In this document: piece by piece, positions 10,299 to 62,963 of the stretch
Numbering within the stretch: position 1 is the first letter of the stretch
Layout of the letters: each line of letters opens with the position of its first letter
Origin: Acidobacteriota bacterium
GTDB lineage: Bacteria; Acidobacteriota; UBA6911
DNA: 64,000 bases
Direction of reading: 5' to 3'
NCBI GenBank assembly: GCA_963664705.1
Contig: OY761556.1
Span: 2,144,001 to 2,208,000, forward strand
Notes under the pieces: generated by a model
Seen by the model: the letters and a program-made list of their open reading frames with translations, nothing else
Told to the model about the DNA's origin: nothing
Database searches by the model: none
Position numbers and translations under genes: made by a program

Positions 10299-10946
10299 AT
10301 GATTCGTGGAGTGCTATTTGATCTTGATGGAGTAATCATTGATACGCTGCATTACCACTACCTGGCCTGGAAGCATATGTTCCAGCGCTTTGGCGGAGAT
10401 GTGAACGAGCATACCGTCCTGCTCCACGAGGGAAGGAACTCCCGCGAAATTCTTCCGCTTCTGATGAAGGAAGCAGGAATTTCTATTCCGGATGATCAAC
10501 AGGCCGACTTCATTGATGAAAAACGCGCCTATTACCGAAGCATCGTGCATGTGCAACAATACCCGGGCGCCTTTGAGGTTATCGATGCCTTGAAGCATCG
10601 CGGATACAAAGTAGCTCTTGTGACCGCCTGCGCTTTGAAAAATATGCAGCACTCGCTCGACAGCGATCATCAAAAACACTTTGATTTTATTATCACCGGA
10701 GATGAAGTCCCTCGCGCCAAACCCTTTCCCGATCCTTATCTGATGGCAGCCCGGCAAATCGGCCTCGATCCATCCGATTGCATTGTAGTGGAAAATGCGC
10801 CCCTCGGAATTGAGGCGGCAAAGAATGCGGGGATGTACTGCATTGCAATCGAAACGACTCTCGGGAAGGAATTTCTACAATCCGCGGATTGCATTCTGCC
10901 CAGCATCCGGGATGTACTTCAGCTCCCGTTTTTTGCCACGAATTAA
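10299..10946 (+). CDS. HAD-family phosphatase (beta-PGM/CbbY-like)
   Basis: FDLDGV motif I, KPFPD, VENAPLGIEAA; RBS GGAGGG. Confidence 0.9.
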   Translation: MIRGVLFDLDGVIIDTLHYHYLAWKHMFQRFGGDVNEHTVLLHEGRNSREILPLLMKEAGISIPDDQQADFIDEKRAYYRSIVHVQQYPGAFEVIDALKHRGYKVALVTACALKNMQHSLDSDHQKHFDFIITGDEVPRAKPFPDPYLMAARQIGLDPSDCIVVENAPLGIEAAKNAGMYCIAIETTLGKEFLQSADCILPSIRDVLQLPFFATN

Positions 10947-10965
10947 GCGAATTAGTAGGCCCATT

Positions 10966-11142
10966 AACCGCCAAGACCTCGAAGACCGCAAAGAATAGTT
11001 TTGGGGCTCATTTTGTTGGTTTTTGCGGGCTGGATGCTTACGCAGAATATGCTCCTATCCGCTACAAGGAGGTTGCGCTCGATTGTGGATAAACAAGCAA
11101 TTCTTGGCGGTCTTCGCGGTTCAAAGATAAAAACGAATCAAC
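10966..11142. mobile_element. Internally deleted, non-autonomous derivative of the GxxExxY cassette
   Basis: Terminal inverted arrays AACCGCCAAGACCTCGAAGACCGCAAAGAA (10966-10995) and TTCTTGGCGGTCTTCGCGGTT (11101-11121) enclose a fragment encoding GLDAYAEYAPIRYKEVALDCG, homologous to GLDVYAEYPIPIHYKEIALDCG of the gene at 19560-19940. Confidence 0.8.
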
Positions 11143-11170
11143 GGAATTGTACGAAGGTTTTATTTCGGGA

Positions 11171-12412
11171 TTAGGAGGGCGTCTTCTCTACCAGCTTGAG
11201 TCCGCGTCGGTCGCGAGCCAAACCCGCCGGCCGGAACGGCTCCGCTCCGAGTCCAAACGGATCCTCCCAGTTGGTAGCGGGCTGAGCGCGCAGCACAAGA
11301 TCGTAGGCCGAATCCGCCACAATCCGATCGTCAATGGTCTGCATATTGATCGTGGCCGCCAGCGACATCGAATGCCGGCAGATCATGTTGACGTTGAGGG
11401 GAATCCCGCGAGAGTACAAAGCAATGGCGGAAAGCGCCGCCGGTGAAAACAACTGCCGAGCGCAACCGGCCGTGCGCAGCCGGTGAAGGATATAGCTTCG
11501 CACTTCAGCCTCATCCAGCGGAGCCAGTCGGCTGTACACATTGATCTGTTTTACGGCCTCTTCCAATCGTGCTCCGTCGAGTTTTTCCAGCAATCCCTGC
11601 CTTCCGGCAATCACAACCTGAAGCAGCTTCCCTTTTCTTGATTGCATTCGCGAAAACAGGCACAGATTCTCCAGCATATCGTAAGAGAAATCCTGCGCGT
11701 CATCACAGATCAGCGTCATCAGACGGCCGGCCTGCTGTTTGGAAGCCAACCAGTTCTCAAAAGACCGCAGGTTCTCGTCGAGATCTTTTCCGAAACCATT
11801 CAAGCCGAAAATCCCCATCACACCGCGCACCATTTCGCTGCGCGAATTGAAGGAGCCCGGCATCATGGCGATCTCGGCTTCCGGCCTCAGCGTTTCGACC
11901 AGATATTCCAGCAAGGCGGTTTTTCCCATGCCGGCCTGAGCAAGGATGACGCCGATGCCGCGACGCTCACGAATGAGAGTTCGAATGGATGAAAAGACTT
12001 CCTGGTGTCCCCTGCTGAAGAAATAATACCGCGGGTTTGGGGCAAAGCTGAATGCGTCCTCCGACATCCCCGCCAGGCGTCGAGGATTTTTGGCCGCATC
12101 GACCGGCGCAGACATCCCTCTCTCCATCAACAGGGCGATGCGCATCTCGCGCGCCCCCGCATTCCAATGATCATCGAGCACAAATGCCCGGCAGGAATAG
12201 TGTCGTCTTCCGGATTGGAATTGAGTAACGAGGAATCCCTGCAGCCTGCTTGGATCCTCGGGCATGAAGGTCAGTATCTTCTGTCTCAATATGCCATCAA
12301 TGGCCGCAGGGTTTGTCGCGGTATTGGGATACCCAAGAATTTTGATCGATTCCGGGTTGGCATATACCGGACGATACAGCGAATCGATCAGCACAAATCC
12401 TGCTGTTTCCAA
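11171..12412 (-). CDS. ExeA/GspA-like AAA ATPase with N-terminal PAS-like region
   Basis: FSFAPNPRYYF, Walker A AQAGMGKT, Walker B ICDDAQ, YILHRL and SRGIPLNVN (ExeA signature); N-terminus GFVLID..RPVYANP is PAS-like. Confidence 0.85.
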   Translation of the reverse strand: METAGFVLIDSLYRPVYANPESIKILGYPNTATNPAAIDGILRQKILTFMPEDPSRLQGFLVTQFQSGRRHYSCRAFVLDDHWNAGAREMRIALLMERGMSAPVDAAKNPRRLAGMSEDAFSFAPNPRYYFFSRGHQEVFSSIRTLIRERRGIGVILAQAGMGKTALLEYLVETLRPEAEIAMMPGSFNSRSEMVRGVMGIFGLNGFGKDLDENLRSFENWLASKQQAGRLMTLICDDAQDFSYDMLENLCLFSRMQSRKGKLLQVVIAGRQGLLEKLDGARLEEAVKQINVYSRLAPLDEAEVRSYILHRLRTAGCARQLFSPAALSAIALYSRGIPLNVNMICRHSMSLAATINMQTIDDRIVADSAYDLVLRAQPATNWEDPFGLGAEPFRPAGLARDRRGLKLVEKTPS

Positions 12413-19387: not shown

Positions 19388-19394
19388 AGCTTTT

Positions 19395-19468
19395 TTCGTG
19401 CTAATTCGTGTAATTCGTGGCAAAAAATGAGCTGTAATTCGGCCACGAATTACACCAATTTGCACGAA
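19395..19468. repeat. REPIN-like inverted doublet of CACGAATT-based units
   Basis: TTCGTGCTAATTCGTGTAATTCGTGGC (19395-19421) and GCCACGAATTACACCAATTTGCACGAA (19442-19468) pair with 2 mismatches in 27. Confidence 0.8.
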
Positions 19469-19483
19469 ATCCCCTGCCATCCT

Positions 19484-20185
19484 CAGGTTTATAAAGGAAA
19501 TTCCCATAACCGCGAAGACCGCGAAGACCGCAAAGAAAATATTTTTGTAGGCTTTGCGCCTATCGTTCTCGCCAGATCATACGCTGAATTCCATCCTTGA
19601 TGCGTGGGACCTTCCAGTTAATCAGGAAGCCAATGGAACGTCCACTCAGCTTGAGATATGTAAGCAACTGGGCTCGGTGGACGGGATGGATCACATCGAC
19701 AGTTTTGTTTTCGACGAGTATGCAATCATCTACCAAGAGATCGGCCCTATATCCACAATCGAGCGCGATCTCCTTGTAGTGGATAGGAATAGGATATTCC
19801 GCGTAAACATCGAGCCCGCGAATACCAAGTTCATGCATTAGGCACCGCCGATAAACGGACTCCAGCAATCCAGGCCCAAGCGCTGTATGGATTTCGACCG
19901 CTGAATCGACAATATGATGCGCAACTTTTTCCCTATCCATCACACTATCTAATGGTCCGACAGGAAAATGAGCCAAAAAAATATTCTTTGCGTTCTTCCC
20001 CAGGTTTATAAAGGAAATTCCCATAACCGCGAAGACCGCAAAGAAAATATTTTTGTAGGCTTTGCGCCTATCGTTCTCGCCAGATCATACGCTGAATTCC
20101 ATCCTTGATGCGTGGGACCTTCCAGTTAATCAGGAAGCCAAATGAGTCAAAAAAAATCTTTGCGGTCTTCGAGGTCTTCGCGGTT
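19484..20185. mobile_element. GxxExxY cassette with terminal inverted 9-mer arrays plus a tandem internally deleted copy
   Basis: Left array AACC(GCGAAGACC)2GCAAAGAA at 19508-19537; right array TCTTTGCGGTCTTCGAGGTCTTCGCGGTT at 20157-20185. Region 19484-19633 is repeated at 20001-20141, missing one 9-mer. Confidence 0.75.
19560..19940 (-). CDS. GxxExxY protein (PD-(D/E)XK nuclease-like)
   Basis: MDREKVAHHIVDSAVEIHTALGPGLLESVY (GxxExxY), RADLLV...LVENK catalytic-type motif, AQLLTYLK, GFLINW. The likely start is ATG 19940; the ORF-track extension runs through repeat DNA. Confidence 0.92.
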   Translation of the reverse strand: MDREKVAHHIVDSAVEIHTALGPGLLESVYRRCLMHELGIRGLDVYAEYPIPIHYKEIALDCGYRADLLVDDCILVENKTVDVIHPVHRAQLLTYLKLSGRSIGFLINWKVPRIKDGIQRMIWRER

Positions 20186-20242
20186 CAAAACAAAAAATGA
20201 ATCAACACCATTTATTTGTGGAGCCTGCTTCTCCGCCACGAA

Positions 20243-20896
20243 TTACACCAATTTGCACGAAATACCCTGCATCTCCAGATTTTCCAGGAATTCCGTTAGC
20301 GAACAAAAGGTGAAGTCTGGTTGAGCCTCCGCCAGACGGCGACTGGCCGGGTACAAACTCGGAATTGCGACCGTAAGGACATTGGCTCGTCTTCCCATTA
20401 TCATGTCATCCGGGCAGTCCCCGACATAGCAGCAATCCTCGGGCTTTTTCTGTAATCGATCCAGCGCCAATTCCAGTCCTTCCGGGTGCGGCTTCTTGTT
20501 CACCACATCTTCATTGCAGACAACAATCCTGAAAACATCCCTAAGCCCCAGCGCCCCGATTTCCCGTTCGACCCGAGAGCGTGTTCCGCTGGTGACAATT
20601 CCGAGAACATATTTCCTGTTTATCAGCGTATCGAGCGTCGCACATCCGTCAGCCAGCAATCTTGGAGTTTCGTCGGCATAGTGTCGCAGCCAGCGTTCAT
20701 CGGCCTCATCCCATCGCGGTCGCGGCAATTGGAGCTGCTCATACATGAGGTACCAGTTGGGGGAGTAGATCCGGTTGTAGGTCTCGAAATCGAGGGGAAG
20801 CCCCATGTCGGCAAATGATTTCTGGAATGCATTGAAGGCCTGCTGGGCCGTATCGATCAGCGTTCCATCCCAATCAAACAGAACCGTATTGATCAT
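20243..20896 (-). CDS. HAD-family hydrolase (Gph/PpaX-like)
   Basis: FDWDGTL, IVTSG, KKPHPEG, YVGD motifs. Confidence 0.9.
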   Translation of the reverse strand: MINTVLFDWDGTLIDTAQQAFNAFQKSFADMGLPLDFETYNRIYSPNWYLMYEQLQLPRPRWDEADERWLRHYADETPRLLADGCATLDTLINRKYVLGIVTSGTRSRVEREIGALGLRDVFRIVVCNEDVVNKKPHPEGLELALDRLQKKPEDCCYVGDCPDDMIMGRRANVLTVAIPSLYPASRRLAEAQPDFTFCSLTEFLENLEMQGISCKLV

Positions 20897-24704: not shown

Positions 24705-25479
24705 GCCGGGAGCGCCGCCGTCCCGGCGGCAACGGTTTGAAATGGATGCAACTTTGCTCTTGCCGGAGAGACGCCTCATACGCATTGTTCTAAGCTCTAC
24801 GACGCGAGTGAAGCAACAGGCCTGAAGGGCCGAAAGATCGTAGCCGGGGGTGAAGCGAAGCGAACCCCCGGTAGAGATAAGCGTGAGAACGAGCCCTGGC
24901 AGGGCGACAGAAACGGTGAACCCCGCTCCGATGTTCAACTTTAGGCTATGTGGAGGAACGGAAATATCTTTCGCCCCCTGCCGGGGCTCCTTTAGATTTC
25001 ATGCTATCCGGGGGTTCGCTTCGCTTCACCCCCGGCTACTTTCTGACCGCCCCGCTGGGGCTGAGATGCATCGCGCCGCCAGATCCCTCGGGCAAATAAT
25101 AGGCAGCATTAGCCGTCCCGGCGGCAACGGTTGAAATGGAGGCAACTTTGCTCTTGCCGAAGAGACGCCTAATACGCATTGTTCTAAGCCCTGCGACGCG
25201 AGTGAAGCAACAGGCCCGGAGGGCCGAAAGAAAGTAGCCAGGGGTGAGCGAAGCGAACCCCTGGTAGAGATAAGCGCGGGAAAGAGCCCTGAAGGGGCGA
25301 AAGATCGGGCATTCTGCCGCCCCTTCAGGGCTTGTTATGGATCTAATCCAATCCGGGGGTTCGCTACGCTTCACCCCCGGCTACTTTCTGATCGCCCCTC
25401 CGGGGCTGATATGCATCGCGCTTCCATGTTCTCTGGGCAATTATTGGGCAGCATTCAGCGAGATACCGGCGCTCCCGGC
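24705..25479. repeat. Tandem pair of GTAG-type REP doublets (MITE/REPIN-like, 395-bp period) inside a 13-bp inverted repeat
   Basis: Units start at 24717 and 25112. Each has GTAGCCRGGGGTGA(A)GCGAAGCGAACCCCYGG and an inverted partner (24840-24871/25008-25039, perfect 32 bp; 25234-25264/25353-25384). Outer GCCGGGAGCGCCG pair at 24705-24717/25467-25479. Confidence 0.85.
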
Positions 25480-28314: not shown

Positions 28315-29688
28315 GTGGATTTGGAGTCAGGATTGAAACATTTTGCGAATTCCAGGATTGGTAAGGTGCTAATTGCTGCCCCAATGGCATTGGCCTTCCT
28401 TTTTTTGATCGCAAATTCCATACTCCAGCTGAATCGCATCGTCGATTCATTTAGAGAACGAAGTTTATATTCTAAGGACATTATCCAAGATTGGCTTTTA
28501 GCAAAAGCCATTTTGCATAAAACAAATCCTTATTTAGACATCCAGGAATTGGCAACGCGGTTCATTGCAAACGTACCCCAAGTGCAAAACGGCAGTCATC
28601 CCAGTCCTCATCCACCAACCGTGGGAATACTTATGACTCCACTCGCATTTCTTTCCTACAAAACTGCCATGATTGCCTGGTTCCTAATTGAATTAGCCTT
28701 TGTTGCGGGCTCCGTTTACCTAATCTGCCTCACCTTGAAAATTAAGCGACCGATTGCATTAAGCATAATAGCCATACCCCTTTCAGCCCTCTGGGGCGCT
28801 TCGGGAGAAGAACTTGTCTTAGGGCAATTGGGAATTACTCAGTTGTTTTTTCTCTCTGCGGCCTGGTATTGCATATCAAGACAACAAGCCCAATTATCCG
28901 GAATTTTTACCGGACTTGCAATAATTCTAAAGCCCATGTTATGGCCAATGTTGTTCTTTTTTGTGCTTAAGAGGCTATATAAATCTCTTTGTTATTGTGC
29001 ACTAGCATTATTGTTGAGTGGTGGAATCAGCGCCGCCATTCTGGGAAGAGAAAGCCTTGTTTATTACGCAACCAATGTATTGCCATCAGTCGACGGGATT
29101 TATGCCTGTAGTATCCTCAATTTGTCTCTGAGATCGATCGCTCCGAAGGTTTTTACTGGGATTCATTCGCCAATTCACAATATTGTTTATGCCAAGCCCA
29201 TGATCGACATCCCTGTCTTGGGCGCGCCATTGGGCTGGTTACTACCAATCATTAGTATCGTACTTATATTTTTCTATGTATTCCGGCTTGACACTCAAAT
29301 AGGTTTTTCATTGATGATCATTGCATGCATTCTCGCCAGTCCAGTAGTCTGGGGACATTATCTGGTGCTGCTTGCGATTCCTATCAGTTTGTTAATAAAA
29401 GCAACCATCGAAAGAGGATCCCGCAAGAGCAGCTACCTCTCAGCCATTCTGGGAATTTTTTTGTTTCCAAGTGCCTTGTTTTGGTATGGCTGTATTACAT
29501 TGCTTTCCGGAGATATGCCAACAGCTAAACACTCAATAACAATCCCAGTTGGGCTCGGATTTATCATGTATGTTCCCACGGCCGCGGCAACTTTGCTGAT
29601 CTTTGCCATATTGGCTAGGTACGGTTTAACGCATTCAGCAAAACCTAACAATGAAGAGATTTTGACCATGGACGCCGATCGTCAATAA
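28315..29688 (+). CDS. GT87/DUF2029-like membrane glycosyltransferase (paralog A)
   Basis: KDIIQDW...NPY, PHPP, LGQ, LKP, NLSL, SPVVWGHY motifs; multiple transmembrane helices. Confidence 0.8.
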   Translation: MDLESGLKHFANSRIGKVLIAAPMALAFLFLIANSILQLNRIVDSFRERSLYSKDIIQDWLLAKAILHKTNPYLDIQELATRFIANVPQVQNGSHPSPHPPTVGILMTPLAFLSYKTAMIAWFLIELAFVAGSVYLICLTLKIKRPIALSIIAIPLSALWGASGEELVLGQLGITQLFFLSAAWYCISRQQAQLSGIFTGLAIILKPMLWPMLFFFVLKRLYKSLCYCALALLLSGGISAAILGRESLVYYATNVLPSVDGIYACSILNLSLRSIAPKVFTGIHSPIHNIVYAKPMIDIPVLGAPLGWLLPIISIVLIFFYVFRLDTQIGFSLMIIACILASPVVWGHYLVLLAIPISLLIKATIERGSRKSSYLSAILGIFLFPSALFWYGCITLLSGDMPTAKHSITIPVGLGFIMYVPTAAATLLIFAILARYGLTHSAKPNNEEILTMDADRQ

Positions 29689-34277: not shown

Positions 34278-35666
34278 TTAGGTAGGATGATTTTGACCCT
34301 GCAATCTCCATAGAATGGGAAACAGTAATATTGAGGCTGCAGTGGGGATAAACATCAAATAAACCAGACCTCCTGGCACAGTCACTGCATGGGTACCCGT
34401 GGGAATATCTCCAGAGAAAACGACAACACATCTATACCAAAACATTGAACCCGGAAATAGGGCTACTCCCCAAAGGGCGTAAGAGGATAATTTGCCGGCC
34501 GAAGAGTGTTCGGTCATAAGTGCTTTCACTACCCAGCCAACAGGTATTGCGAGGAGCGCAAAGTAATGGCCCCAAGCTACAGGGCTTGCCAAAATACATG
34601 AAATAATCATCAATGAGAAGCCGGACACAGCTTCCATCCGATAGATTAGATAGAATGTTACGATTAGGCAAACAAGTGGCAGAATCAGACCGGCAGGTTC
34701 GGCAAACATCGGAATATTAATTACGGGTGGAGCAGAAACAGCATTATTAACTGTGGAGTATGTTCCCTTAAACAACTTAAGTCCTGCCGACCGCAACGAT
34801 ATGTTGAATATGCTACAGGCATAATTTTTGTCTACCGTCGGAAGGATATGAACTACGTAATTATAGACAGCCCGTACTCCCAAGATGAAACTGCATATGG
34901 AACCAGCAGAAATCAACAGCGCAACGCAACTAAGTAAAGCTTTGAACTGTTTTTTCAGTGCAAAAAAGAAAATCAATGGCCATAGCATTGGCTTCAGTAT
35001 AATTGCCAATCCGGTAAGCATGCCTGTTCGGATCTCAAGTTTTCTCGATATACAAAACCATGCTGCAGATAAAAATAGTAATTGGAGAATTACCAATTGG
35101 CCCAGCGCGATTTCCTCTCCCGACGCTCCCCAAATGAGTGCAAATGGAACAGCTGCAACGGCCACCATGCGCGGCCGATTGAATCCCAGCGTCCGGCACA
35201 CTAAATAAATCGACGACGTAACAAATAGCAATTCTAGGAAAAACCAAGCATAAGCAGCATGTCTATATGCCAAGCATGAAAGCGGAGTCAGAAACAACCC
35301 GGCTGTTGGCGGGTGTGGCGTTGGATGAATGCCACCTTGTATTTGATGCACATTTCCAATCAGCCGAACCGCCAAGTCATGAATACTCAGATATGGATCT
35401 ATGCCAACCACAATTGCCTTCCCCAAAAGCCAATCCTGTATAAAATCCTTATAAAATATGTTATCTCCCTTGAAGGAGCTTATGATGTAATCCAACTCAA
35501 TGAATGACGTTGTGGGTAGCAACACAAGCGCAAGAAACAAGGTGGTCACAGTTTTTATTTTTTCAAATATTTCCTGCATTATGTTTTTGTCCCAACGGTT
35601 CGGCATAACTATTCCTGGAGTCCAATCCCTTTCGGAGAAAAACTCGCTAATGCGATACTGACACAA
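34278..35666 (-). CDS. GT87/DUF2029-like membrane glycosyltransferase (paralog A')
   Basis: KDFIQDW...DPY, PHPP, WGASGEE, LKPMLWP, SPVAWGHY; colinear with 28315-29688. Confidence 0.8.
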   Translation of the reverse strand: MCQYRISEFFSERDWTPGIVMPNRWDKNIMQEIFEKIKTVTTLFLALVLLPTTSFIELDYIISSFKGDNIFYKDFIQDWLLGKAIVVGIDPYLSIHDLAVRLIGNVHQIQGGIHPTPHPPTAGLFLTPLSCLAYRHAAYAWFFLELLFVTSSIYLVCRTLGFNRPRMVAVAAVPFALIWGASGEEIALGQLVILQLLFLSAAWFCISRKLEIRTGMLTGLAIILKPMLWPLIFFFALKKQFKALLSCVALLISAGSICSFILGVRAVYNYVVHILPTVDKNYACSIFNISLRSAGLKLFKGTYSTVNNAVSAPPVINIPMFAEPAGLILPLVCLIVTFYLIYRMEAVSGFSLMIISCILASPVAWGHYFALLAIPVGWVVKALMTEHSSAGKLSSYALWGVALFPGSMFWYRCVVVFSGDIPTGTHAVTVPGGLVYLMFIPTAASILLFPILWRLQGQNHPT

Positions 35667-41415: not shown

Positions 41416-41517
41416 ATGTTGATTTTTATATGTTAATCTATTAGAATGAATTAACATATTAATACAAAGCTCTTTCCTCTCACCTCGTGTCACTTCTGGC
41501 TACCCAAGGAGGGCGAA

Positions 41518-41712
41518 ATGCTAGCGATCTGGTCACTATGGAATAAAATAAAAACAAATCTGTCTAAAGAAGAAGGCCAAACAGCCGTGGAATATACACT
41601 GTTGCTTGCCCTTGTGGCGTTGGCGATCATACTGGCCAATCCATCCCTTCGCAGCAGCGTCAGCACTATCTTCAGCAAAGTAAGTTCTGGATTAAGCAGC
41701 GCAGCAGAGTAA
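41518..41712 (+). CDS. flp: Flp/Tad pilin 1
   Basis: Leader ...KEEG|QTAVEY with E+5/Y+6 and a hydrophobic helix; RBS GGAGG. Confidence 0.93.
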   Translation: MLAIWSLWNKIKTNLSKEEGQTAVEYTLLLALVALAIILANPSLRSSVSTIFSKVSSGLSSAAE

Positions 41713-42011
41713 TAAAGTCGGCGTTGATGGTCTCCCTTTAGGCTAGGGTTCGGGGCGACATCCGGCAATAGATCATTGCATTTTCCTTTCGTCAGCATGG
41801 CTTGGCACCCGCCGCTTTTCCGCAGACAAAAGGGGAGACCTCAACCGCGATTGTTACAATCCTATCAGGTCTGCTGTTTCGAGGTATTGCACCAAGCAGG
41901 CCGCTTTCCAGCATTGGGTATCTTGGAGATTCGCTACACCCTAAAAGGCAGAGACTTGACCATACACAGCCAGGCTGCTTGATAGTTTTTTAGAATTAGA
42001 AACAAGCCTTT

Positions 42012-42037
42012 TTACATTTAATAACATTATTTTGACA
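42012..42037 (+). promoter_or_regulatory. Triple direct-repeat box upstream of flp2
   Basis: TTACA(42012)-TAACA(42022)-TGACA(42033), the same 10/11 spacing as at flp1. Confidence 0.55.
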
Positions 42038-42147
42038 TTTCACTGAAGTTCTTTGCCGATAATAGCTACGGGACACTTGAATGCTTCGCCCCCCTTAAGT
42101 GTCAGAACTGTGTAGTTTGTTGGATCCAACGTAAAAAGGAGAAAAAA

Positions 42148-42342
42148 ATGTTAGCACTTTGGTCCTTGTGGAACAAAATCAAGACAAACATCAGTAAAGA
42201 AGAAGGCCAGACGGCTGTAGAATACACCTTATTACTGGCCTTGGTGGCGCTGGCGATTATTTTGGCTAACCCATCCCTTCGCAGCAGCGTTAGCGTGATA
42301 TTCAGTAAGGTCAGTTCAGGATTGAGCAGCGCGTCAGCCTAA
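42148..42342 (+). CDS. flp: Flp/Tad pilin 2
   Basis: Same Flp motif; 5 amino-acid differences from pilin 1; RBS AAGGAG. Confidence 0.93.
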   Translation: MLALWSLWNKIKTNISKEEGQTAVEYTLLLALVALAIILANPSLRSSVSVIFSKVSSGLSSASA

Positions 42343-59848: not shown

Positions 59849-59859
59849 CATCCTCTGGT

Positions 59860-59925
59860 TTCGTATAAATTCGTGGAATTCGTGGCAACAAGGAAGCTGG
59901 AGATCGGCCACGAATTTACACGAAT
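59860..59925. repeat. REPIN-like inverted doublet of CACGAATT units
   Basis: TTCGTATAAATTCGTGGAATTCGTGGC ... GGCCACGAATTTACACGAAT; the spacer resembles that at 19421-19441. Confidence 0.75.
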
Positions 59926-61664: not shown

Positions 61665-62909
61665 ATGAAATCGAAGAAGCCAACGTACTTTGTCCGTCCG
61701 CGCACGGCCGTACTCACCCGGGGCTTCGATCCGCGTCTTTCCGTCGGATCGGCACGGCCGGCCGTATTTCGATCCTCCACCTACGTCTTTTCTTCGCCGG
61801 AATCCGCCGAGCGCTCCTTCAATATCGCTCTCGGCAAAGCCCAAGTCGAACCGGGAGAAAGCACCGACCTGATCTACGCCAGGCTGTCGCACCCCAATGC
61901 CGAAATCCTCGAAGACCAGGTGGTCCCCCTGGAACCCGGGGCCAAGGCTGCAGCCGTCTTCAATTCCGGAATGGCGGCCATTTCGACTTTGTTTTTTACG
62001 CTTTGCCCGGCCGGAACAAATTTTATTTATACGATGCCACTTTATGGTGGAACCTATCATCTTATACATCAGTTACTGCAGCCCCTGGGCGTTCATGGAA
62101 TCCCGGTCATCGCGGGAGATACGGAAGGGATGAAACGCGCGATCCGGTCCACGCCCAATCTGCGAATGGTCCTCATCGAAACGCCCGCCAACCCGGTCCT
62201 TACCATGACCGATATTGCGGCTGCATCCTCGGCGGCTAAACAGAATCCGGACGCGCCGTTCGTGGTCGTCGACAATACCTTCATTGGCCCCGCTTTTCAG
62301 CATCCGCTGACCCACGGGGCAGACCTGGTGGTGTATTCGGCCACCAAGTATCTTTCCGGATTCAGTGACATGCTGGGAGGCATTGTGCTGGCCAGGGATG
62401 GAGACCTGATTGAGCACCTGCACGGCATGCGGGCGATCCTGGGGAATATCCTGCAGCCGGATGAGTGCTGGATGCTCGACGGGCGTCTCCCGACCGTTTC
62501 GCTGCGCATGAATCGACAGAGCAAGAATGCCCAGCGCATTGCCGAGACGCTTGCGGAGCATAAGAAGATCGAGCGGGTTCATTACCCCACCCTATTTGAA
62601 GATCCGGAGCAGATACGGATCCGGGATGCGCAATGCGAGTTTCCGGGCGCGATCTTTTCCATCGAGTTGAAGGGGGGCAAACCGGCGGCATTTGATTTTC
62701 TGAGGAATCTGCAGATTGCCAGGAACGCCGTGAGCCTGGGCGGCGTGGAATCGCTCGTTTGCCATCCCGCCACCACAACCCATTCCGAAATGAGCGAGGA
62801 GGATAAAAAGCAGTTTGGGATCGACGATTCCCTGGTTCGAATCTCAGTCGGGATTGAGGACTGGCGCGACCTGCTGCACGATCTTCAACAGGCATTGGAT
62901 TCGATTTGA
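61665..62909 (+). CDS. Cys/Met-metabolism PLP enzyme (cystathionine gamma-synthase/methionine gamma-lyase family)
   Basis: YARLSHPN, SGMAAI, YGGT, ETPANP, VDNTF, SATKYLSG, VSLGGVESL. Confidence 0.92.
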   Translation: MKSKKPTYFVRPRTAVLTRGFDPRLSVGSARPAVFRSSTYVFSSPESAERSFNIALGKAQVEPGESTDLIYARLSHPNAEILEDQVVPLEPGAKAAAVFNSGMAAISTLFFTLCPAGTNFIYTMPLYGGTYHLIHQLLQPLGVHGIPVIAGDTEGMKRAIRSTPNLRMVLIETPANPVLTMTDIAAASSAAKQNPDAPFVVVDNTFIGPAFQHPLTHGADLVVYSATKYLSGFSDMLGGIVLARDGDLIEHLHGMRAILGNILQPDECWMLDGRLPTVSLRMNRQSKNAQRIAETLAEHKKIERVHYPTLFEDPEQIRIRDAQCEFPGAIFSIELKGGKPAAFDFLRNLQIARNAVSLGGVESLVCHPATTTHSEMSEEDKKQFGIDDSLVRISVGIEDWRDLLHDLQQALDSI

Positions 62910-62963
62910 ACGTTGGACGTTGGACGTTTGGACGTTGGACGTTGAACGTTGGACGTTTGGACG
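62906..62963 (+). repeat. Heptamer tandem array (TTGGACG) x8
   Basis: TTGAACG TTGGACG TTGGACG TTTGGACG TTGGACG TTGAACG TTGGACG TTTGGACG; the first unit contains the upstream gene's TGA. Confidence 0.85.

Follow-up and report, generated by a model that had tools for sequence, protein, structure and literature searches.

Rare, recurrent flips of GxxExxY cassettes in a two-layer mobile element family of an Acidobacteriota genome

A short element in the genome of an Acidobacteriota bacterium carries a remnant of a GxxExxY gene that seems to face the wrong way. Is the core of this mini element really reversed relative to the sequences that enclose it, how often have related elements been reversed, and what would have moved and turned them? 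The questions come from a sequence-only reading of a 64,000-nucleotide stretch (the window; contig OY761556.1, positions 2,144,001 to 2,208,000), in which the element was compared with a locus at 19.5-20.2 kb that holds an intact gene of the same family. Coordinates below 64,000 refer to the window, and larger ones refer to the genome that contains it (G000; 6.9 Mb, a single contig) unless another genome is named. Outer flanks are called L and R. In canonical copies, R lies beside the leader of the cassette and L lies beside its tail.

Table 1. Features of the mini element, the intact-gene locus and the four loci with non-canonical orientation
Feature	Position	Strand	Remarks
Remnant of the CACGAATT ten-base repeat family	10929..10955	+	27 nt, 93% complementary to 19401-19427
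L, left outer flank, 17 nt	10949..10965	+	eroded right end of IS1634-family element, terminal repeat mostly gone
Nine-base array, three units (A ACCGCCAAG ACCTCGAAG ACCGCAAAG)	10966..10993	+	
Flipped core, 109 nt	10994..11102	+	leader deletion-joined to about codons 64-91 of the 154-aa ORF P0001, 3'-truncated
Inverted nine-base array, two units	11103..11121	-	
R, right outer flank, 22 nt, truncated	11122..11143	-	leader side in canonical copies
Left copy of 39-nt direct repeat, CACGAATT-family sequence	19439..19477	+	95%; degenerate extension to ~66 nt
Tail-side nine-base array of intact cassette	19508..19535	+	
Intact GxxExxY gene (TIGR04256 / PF13366)	19560..19940	-	putative start MDREK; ORF to 20024
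Tandem internally deleted cassette copy with its own arrays	20025..20185	-	116 nt identical
R flank, canonical leader-side position	20186..20231	-	
Right copy of 39-nt direct repeat	20232..20270	+	
Non-canonical locus 1 (mini element)	10949-11143		flip
Non-canonical locus 2	G000:4682090		clean flip, intact IS end, 118-bp flanking duplication 99% identical
Non-canonical locus 3	G000:270646		L (IS right end) on both sides
Non-canonical locus 4	G000:1666124		solo L-leader end

The core of the mini element is reversed relative to its right flank, because the core matches the opposite strand of the intact-gene locus whereas the adjoining array and right flank match the same strand. In a local alignment, 11016-11091 (+) pairs with 19828-19750 (-) (85% across 79 columns; E 1e-21). 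For the leader (10966-11013), the match is to the reverse strand of 20185-20140. The array and right flank together (11102-11142) match 20166-20206. Both outer flanks had been thought to match the intact-gene locus in the same orientation. This is correct on the right, but the two left flanks share only CCCAT, and the best local alignment between the left sides is an unrelated CACGAATT ten-base repeat. The conclusion survives this weak pair since the left flank of the mini element matches the standard flank of the family. Weight matrices were built from canonical copies, one per locus (14 left and 15 right flanks). Of 13.8 million genome positions, 27 reach the score of the 17-nt left flank and 18 reach that of the 22-nt right flank; the right flank is identical to the R flank of G000:6889199 at 21 of 22 positions. 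Alignments and matrices together confirm the flip of the core against its outer flanks. One supporting detail falls away: the GACCTCGAAG unit, which had been taken as diagnostic of the leader, is present in 31 of 45 leader ends but also in 14 of 39 tail ends.

The flipped core is a dead gene fragment located between two convergent genes, of which the upstream one is a HAD gene. The element is an insertion. Eleven HAD-AAA loci of relatives were fetched, and in all eight that hold both neighbouring genes the intergenic region is free of arrays by eye; in six of them the genes are 36-39 nt apart or overlap. At 10944-10946 the CACGAATT-family remnant supplies the TAA stop codon of the HAD gene (ORF end 10946), and over a short stretch this remnant overlaps the eroded IS end. 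The same ten-base family occurs in the window at 10929-10955, 19394-19469, 20232-20270 and 59859-59916. At the orthologous HAD-AAA site of another genome (L008, G001:C134) there is a different, repeat-rich insert of 326 nt, which suggests that the convergent gap collects repeats. An Rfam search over 10850-11250 gave no match at E up to 1. Folding of the mini element, run with no shuffle control, produced only the expected pairing of the arms. A scan of metagenomes for the exact L-plus-array pattern returned zero matches.

The intact gene passes the cut-off of TIGR04256 (134.2 bits; cut-off 35) and that of PF13366 (PDDEXK_3), which is its only Pfam match, and its product is a predicted member of the PD-(D/E)XK nuclease fold. 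It keeps the residues that presumably make up the GxxExxY and D...ExK motifs. No relative of the protein was found in the PDB by sequence, and its nearest full-length counterparts (83-90%) come from Acidobacteriota assemblies. By tblastn, the genome has a single intact gene of this GxxExxY subfamily, along with two GxxExxY genes that are more distantly related. The remnant in the mini element is assigned to the family by DNA and tblastn similarity; an HMM search with its ORF gave no hit. GxxExxY proteins as a family have no assigned function, which is listed as 'Unknown' in the portion of PMC3424549 cited here. Unrelated GxxExxY genes with inverted arrays of their own are located at G000:C1:4472310-4473126 (L132) and 3800618-3800947. 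The first of these cassettes is based on the CACGAATT ten-base unit, and internally deleted copies follow it in tandem, as in the window at 19.5-20.2 kb.

A census of the genome yields 91 nine-base array ends at 30 loci, with 42 paired elements. Most of the paired elements carry deletions of their own, which bears out the proposal that non-autonomous deletion derivatives have spread, and ten of the 30 loci are multimers. Automatic labelling of the ends gave 35 R-leader, 24 L-tail, 12 L2-tail, five L-leader and one R-tail end. The rest are one R flank with a truncated core (the mini locus), two L flanks with truncated cores and 11 ends with no flank label. L2 is a different tail-side flank that is present at seven loci. 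Before the tally, the end at 3889628 was relabelled by hand from L to R-like, five truncated ends were assigned to the tail, and two unclassified ends in the window were called L2; this last assignment is doubtful, as the flank may belong to the target duplication. Loci 1831256 and 5784158, which have no family flanks, were left out. Canonical orientation is found at 24 of the 28 informative loci and the four others are given in Table 1 (p = 1.8e-4 against 50:50). The segment between the inverted arrays does exist in both orientations within one genome, as had been supposed.

Arrays and multimers of other kinds were also encountered. Head-to-tail amplification of an element together with neighbouring DNA is seen at G000:C1:5193430-5195095 (seven units), 5548034-5549287 (four) and 5929814-5930814 (three). 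In another genome (G027 L013-L042) there are many gene-less hairpins of related nine-base arrays, and ten loci examined there gave no GxxExxY or transposase hit.

The outer layer of the family derives from an insertion sequence. An intact IS1634-family element of 1,642 bp at G000:6057793-6059434 has the terminal repeat CCTGACTTGACCG and encodes a 490-aa transposase, which matches NF033559 at 325.8 bits (cut-off 100) as well as PF01609. With this query, it is the only IS1634-family transposase found in the genome. The ends, CCTGACTT, fit the C-----YT pattern, and the length lies within 1500-2000 bp (criteria from PMC2266710). L corresponds to the last 28 bp of this element, with scores of 40-48 in five copies against shuffle maxima of 22-25; it begins with CCTGACTTGACCG, nearly always 30 nt from the array. 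The left flank of the mini element, aligned to the reverse-complemented IS right end, scores 26 (shuffle maximum 24), and the left flank of the 19.5-kb locus does not match that end (14; shuffle maximum 23). R flanks of units 6229967 and 6230371 align to IS positions 1-63 with scores of 52-53 versus 30-40 for shuffles, and the R flank at 3889628 aligns in part to the IS left end. Among ten R flanks compared with that left end, six were too short or too diverged to beat shuffles, and a seventh barely did. L2 matches neither IS end where tested.

Long target duplications accompany the derived copies (36-118 bp), and none is found around the intact element. Of the 22 loci in this genome with an IS right end, 12 have a direct repeat of at least 40 nt immediately next to it, some of them tandem multimers, versus two of 300 random positions. 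At 6229768 and 5237361 the left terminal repeat lies directly against the duplication, and other left ends stop at varying points. The duplication thus sits against a precise right end, whereas copies differ in their left ends and interiors, which suggests a one-ended, replication-coupled route. The composite at G000:6229768 is complete, with both terminal repeats and a 105-bp abutting repeat. Complete composites elsewhere are L077 in G034 (52 bp) and L093 and L095 in G005 (51 and 36 bp), and in the composite L076 of G033 a 57-bp repeat starts 8 nt past the left repeat. All of these combine both terminal repeats and a duplication with the lack of a transposase, as in IS1634-derived MITEs or passengers. 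At the mini locus only subterminal remnants of the IS survive, neither terminal repeat is intact, and the search for a direct repeat around it found none (score 18; null median 17); it is a decayed relative, not an intact member, of this MITE family.

The composite is also present in five other genomes of the genus (G005, G007, G033, G034 and G040). A search of draft assemblies of 29 other genomes of the genus, these five included, found no close homologue of the transposase, the best match being 37% over 95 aa. The best plasmid relatives are actinobacterial IS1634 elements (40-45%). The ends of related actinobacterial IS1634 elements are similar, and in two of five records repeats of 23 and 47 bp abut them.

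Miniature elements of IS1634 type with no GxxExxY cassette are located at G000:C1:1230860-1231100, 2537455-2537631 and 6304351-6304800, and two of them carry a hairpin that by eye resembles repeats in the window at 24.7-25.5 kb. The IS1634 shell may thus have picked up other cargo. Those window repeats form a REP-like palindromic cluster (24737-25455) with direct and inverted copies. Other repeats in the window are a 207-nt direct repeat (75%) at 41506-42342, an inverted pair of 71-102-nt matches about 5-6 kb apart (28900-29403 with 34521-35024) and a TTGGACG seven-base tandem array at 62906-62963.

The flips are derived, since none occurs in the five other genomes that carry the composite. 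All classified ends in these genomes are canonical (eight R-leader and five L-tail), and no reversed end is visible among those left unclassified by the patterns. In G005 (L051-L064), cassettes are joined back to back ten times by a constant 18-nt spacer, which has the same orientation in all ten. The core of the mini element is identical to the core at G000:1489380-1489493 at 96 of 107 aligned bases, with both breakpoints in common, and R is on the leader side in the tandem copies there (G000:1489243-1489771). The copy at 6073539 has the same junction as the second flipped core, at 4682090 (73 of 81 identical). Flipped cores differ by 10% from any sibling. As the two clean flips carry different deletions, each with a canonical sibling, at least two separate late inversions would have taken place after the deletions. 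The solo end at 1666124 was considered as a product of the same flip as the mini element. Both have AGCG in the IS end, which is found in two of 30 L ends, but the core at 1666124 can be read as a canonical leader, and the shared bases were set aside as evidence. The copy at 270646 has 61 extra bases with no second match in the genome.

All flip breakpoints lie within the arrays (19-37 bp), the flipped cores are 90-109 nt long, and the arrays at flipped loci are not homogenised. The tail subtype of the second flipped core is usually found with L2 flanks. Searches of the genome gave 27 tyrosine and two serine recombinase hits; none is within about 13 kb of any cassette locus, and the nearest is more than 100 kb from the mini locus. 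There is thus no dedicated recombinase nearby, as an inverton would have, and a distant global invertase could act instead. No joint with a change of strand was found among the contigs examined, which drop rare forms. In the raw-read run X6, no read falls on this stretch. The flips in this two-layer family are real and recurrent but rare, and they likely come from rare recombination between the inverted repeats and not from a working switch. A flip of this kind is probably ordinary by itself.

The mini element is probably a decayed GxxExxY cassette that sits backwards between IS1634-family ends, a MITE passenger of a kind that is occasionally inverted by host recombination or template switching. 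Shared ends and duplications suggest that the composite would spread with the help of an IS1634 transposase acting in trans. The core would be flipped now and then between its inverted arrays, either by host recombination or by polymerase template switching. Inversion of the spacer of a tandem dimer, array by array, would give a copy that has two IS right ends, one at each side. A stand-alone PD-(D/E)XK protein is not needed as the engine of spread, because there is an intact IS1634 transposase with the same terminal repeats and inversion by the host is known. A GxxExxY nuclease may still have a role in the flips.

Several observations fit this MITE-passenger explanation less well. The mini locus itself has neither an intact terminal repeat nor a direct repeat, so its own arrival by IS1634 transposition is conjectural. 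The intact IS lacks a duplication, and no close transposase was found in the draft assemblies of 29 other genomes of the genus. Most of the R flanks compared fail against shuffles, and L2, where tested, matches neither IS end. Template switching tends to homogenise the arms, but the arrays of the flipped loci are not homogenised. The yeast spacer inversions described in the cited part of PMC8604942 involve 2-5 bp, far less than the cores here. The L2-associated tail in the second flipped core also fits an exchange of cores.

An undescribed mobility system is unlikely, but it is the main rival. In it, the GxxExxY protein would nick or cut its own nine-base arrays, and repair or rejoining would normally move or amplify the cassette and would sometimes join it backwards. 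Flips, deletions and tandem copies would then be by-products of this system. Across the phylum, inverted arrays of 8-10 bases flank GxxExxY genes at 21 of 29 loci (one of 30 was dropped, having no tblastn hit) versus one of 55 control windows, and the 21 include two unrelated arrays in this genome. Gene and arrays thus form a conserved unit that does not depend on IS1634, and the pairing needs an explanation beyond host accidents. The positions of the breakpoints, the private deletions of nearly every locus, the frequent multimers, the constant spacer of the G005 cassettes and the catalytic-type residues kept in the intact gene all agree with such an activity. However, the part of PMC3424549 cited here gives the family no known activity, and no structure is related by sequence. 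Flips are rare in this genome and absent from the five others, several of which have full-length genes, and host processes suffice for rare events.

A combination of the two layers is likewise a minority possibility. Cutting and rejoining by the GxxExxY protein would flip, delete and amplify the inner cassette, and replicative IS1634 activity anchored at the right end would copy the whole. In this two-layer reading, an IS1634 MITE would have captured the cassette in this genus, and the replicative copying would yield the long variable target duplications.

Exchange of cores is rather improbable. Gene conversion primed in the arrays would copy a core into a recipient shell, and because the arrays are alike it could do so in either orientation. 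The flipped copy at 4682090 does have an L2-type tail, with L2 copies as nearest neighbours, inside an L-type shell; the canonical copy at 6681436 has the same mixture of tail and flank, and the R flank of the mini element is nearest to copies with L shells and not to its sibling near 1489xxx. On the other hand, that tail subtype resembles outgroup tails by eye and may be ancestral, and a tandem junction has apparently removed the L end of the 1489xxx sibling, the shell of which could be of either type. Only two copies are involved, a very small number.

Insertion in either orientation into a conserved target, which the sequence-only reading had offered as an alternative to inversion, is very unlikely, and so is a programmed invertible switch. 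Both orientations do occur within one genome. But the flanks are transposon ends, none of 30 R-flank matches in the genome lacks an array, the orientation is biased 24 to 4, and the breakpoints are common to canonical siblings. Nor is there an adjacent recombinase, and the core is a dead fragment between convergent genes.

An assembly chimera of repeat copies is extremely improbable, although the family has more than 40 copies and the contigs across the locus may derive from the source sample: in X1 and X3, which are runs of one sample and possibly of the source, unbroken contigs cover 10400-11700 with zero differences, and the flipped cores differ from any sibling by 10%. A 151-nt contig of X5, from another study, is identical to 10993-11143 and covers the stretch from core to R, with 22 letters beyond the array as weak support. 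The left junction of the second flip, from IS end to leader, is bridged by a 216-nt contig, and its right junction is not bridged. The independently assembled spanning contigs and the second flipped copy make a one-off assembly error, the stated worry about this locus, unlikely.

Parts of this arrangement have counterparts in known systems. In invertons such as fimS and the invertible promoters of Bacteroides, a segment bounded by inverted repeats likewise exists in two orientations, but they differ from the present family in that here no invertase is adjacent and the flips are rare and derived. In REP/RAYT systems, gene-less derivatives far outnumber the gene, as they do here; in contrast, the protein here is of the PD-(D/E)XK type and not an HUH (Y1) transposase. 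Spacer inversion between short inverted repeats was reportedly the subject of an E. coli study by Schofield et al. in 1992. The cited parts of two papers describe such inversion at inverted repeats by template switching (PMC8604942) or homologous recombination (PMC11040001). The flips resemble it in that short imperfect inverted repeats bound the reversed segment and contain the breakpoints, and in that there is no dedicated recombinase. Here, however, periodic nine-base arrays form the repeats, the spacers are longer and the family is mobile. Restriction-modification genes with long target duplications or inverted repeats (Furuta et al. 2010, PMC2853133, in the parts cited) are similar in that a nuclease-fold gene is flanked in the same way; here there is no methyltransferase, and the duplications are explained by IS1634-type ends.

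The closest likeness is to the IS1549/IS1634 group (De Palmenaer et al. 2008, PMC2266710), members of which make direct repeats of 8-514 bp by a mechanism that the cited sections do not report. The NF033559 DDE transposase, the 1.6-kb element, the C-----YT ends and the long variable repeats on derived copies all agree. What sets the non-autonomous copies apart from known IS-derived MITEs of this group is their GxxExxY cassette, which has inverted arrays of its own. In these copies the right end is exact and the left is often cut back variably, element and target are often amplified in tandem, and the mini locus has lost both ends. No description of a GxxExxY cassette in inverted periodic arrays was found in the literature searched. 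Searches on IS1549 with MITE or passenger, on hairpin inversions with MITE and on RecA-independent inversions gave nothing on such a cassette. For the long duplications, the 2008 survey (PMC2266710) stated that there was no model, and a limited search found no later one.

GxxExxY proteins are widespread and uncharacterised. With one intact gene, elements of 150-700 bp and mapped breakpoints, this family is a compact natural substrate for studying GxxExxY action on arrays. It also bears on the origin of the long, variable target duplications of IS1549 and IS1634.
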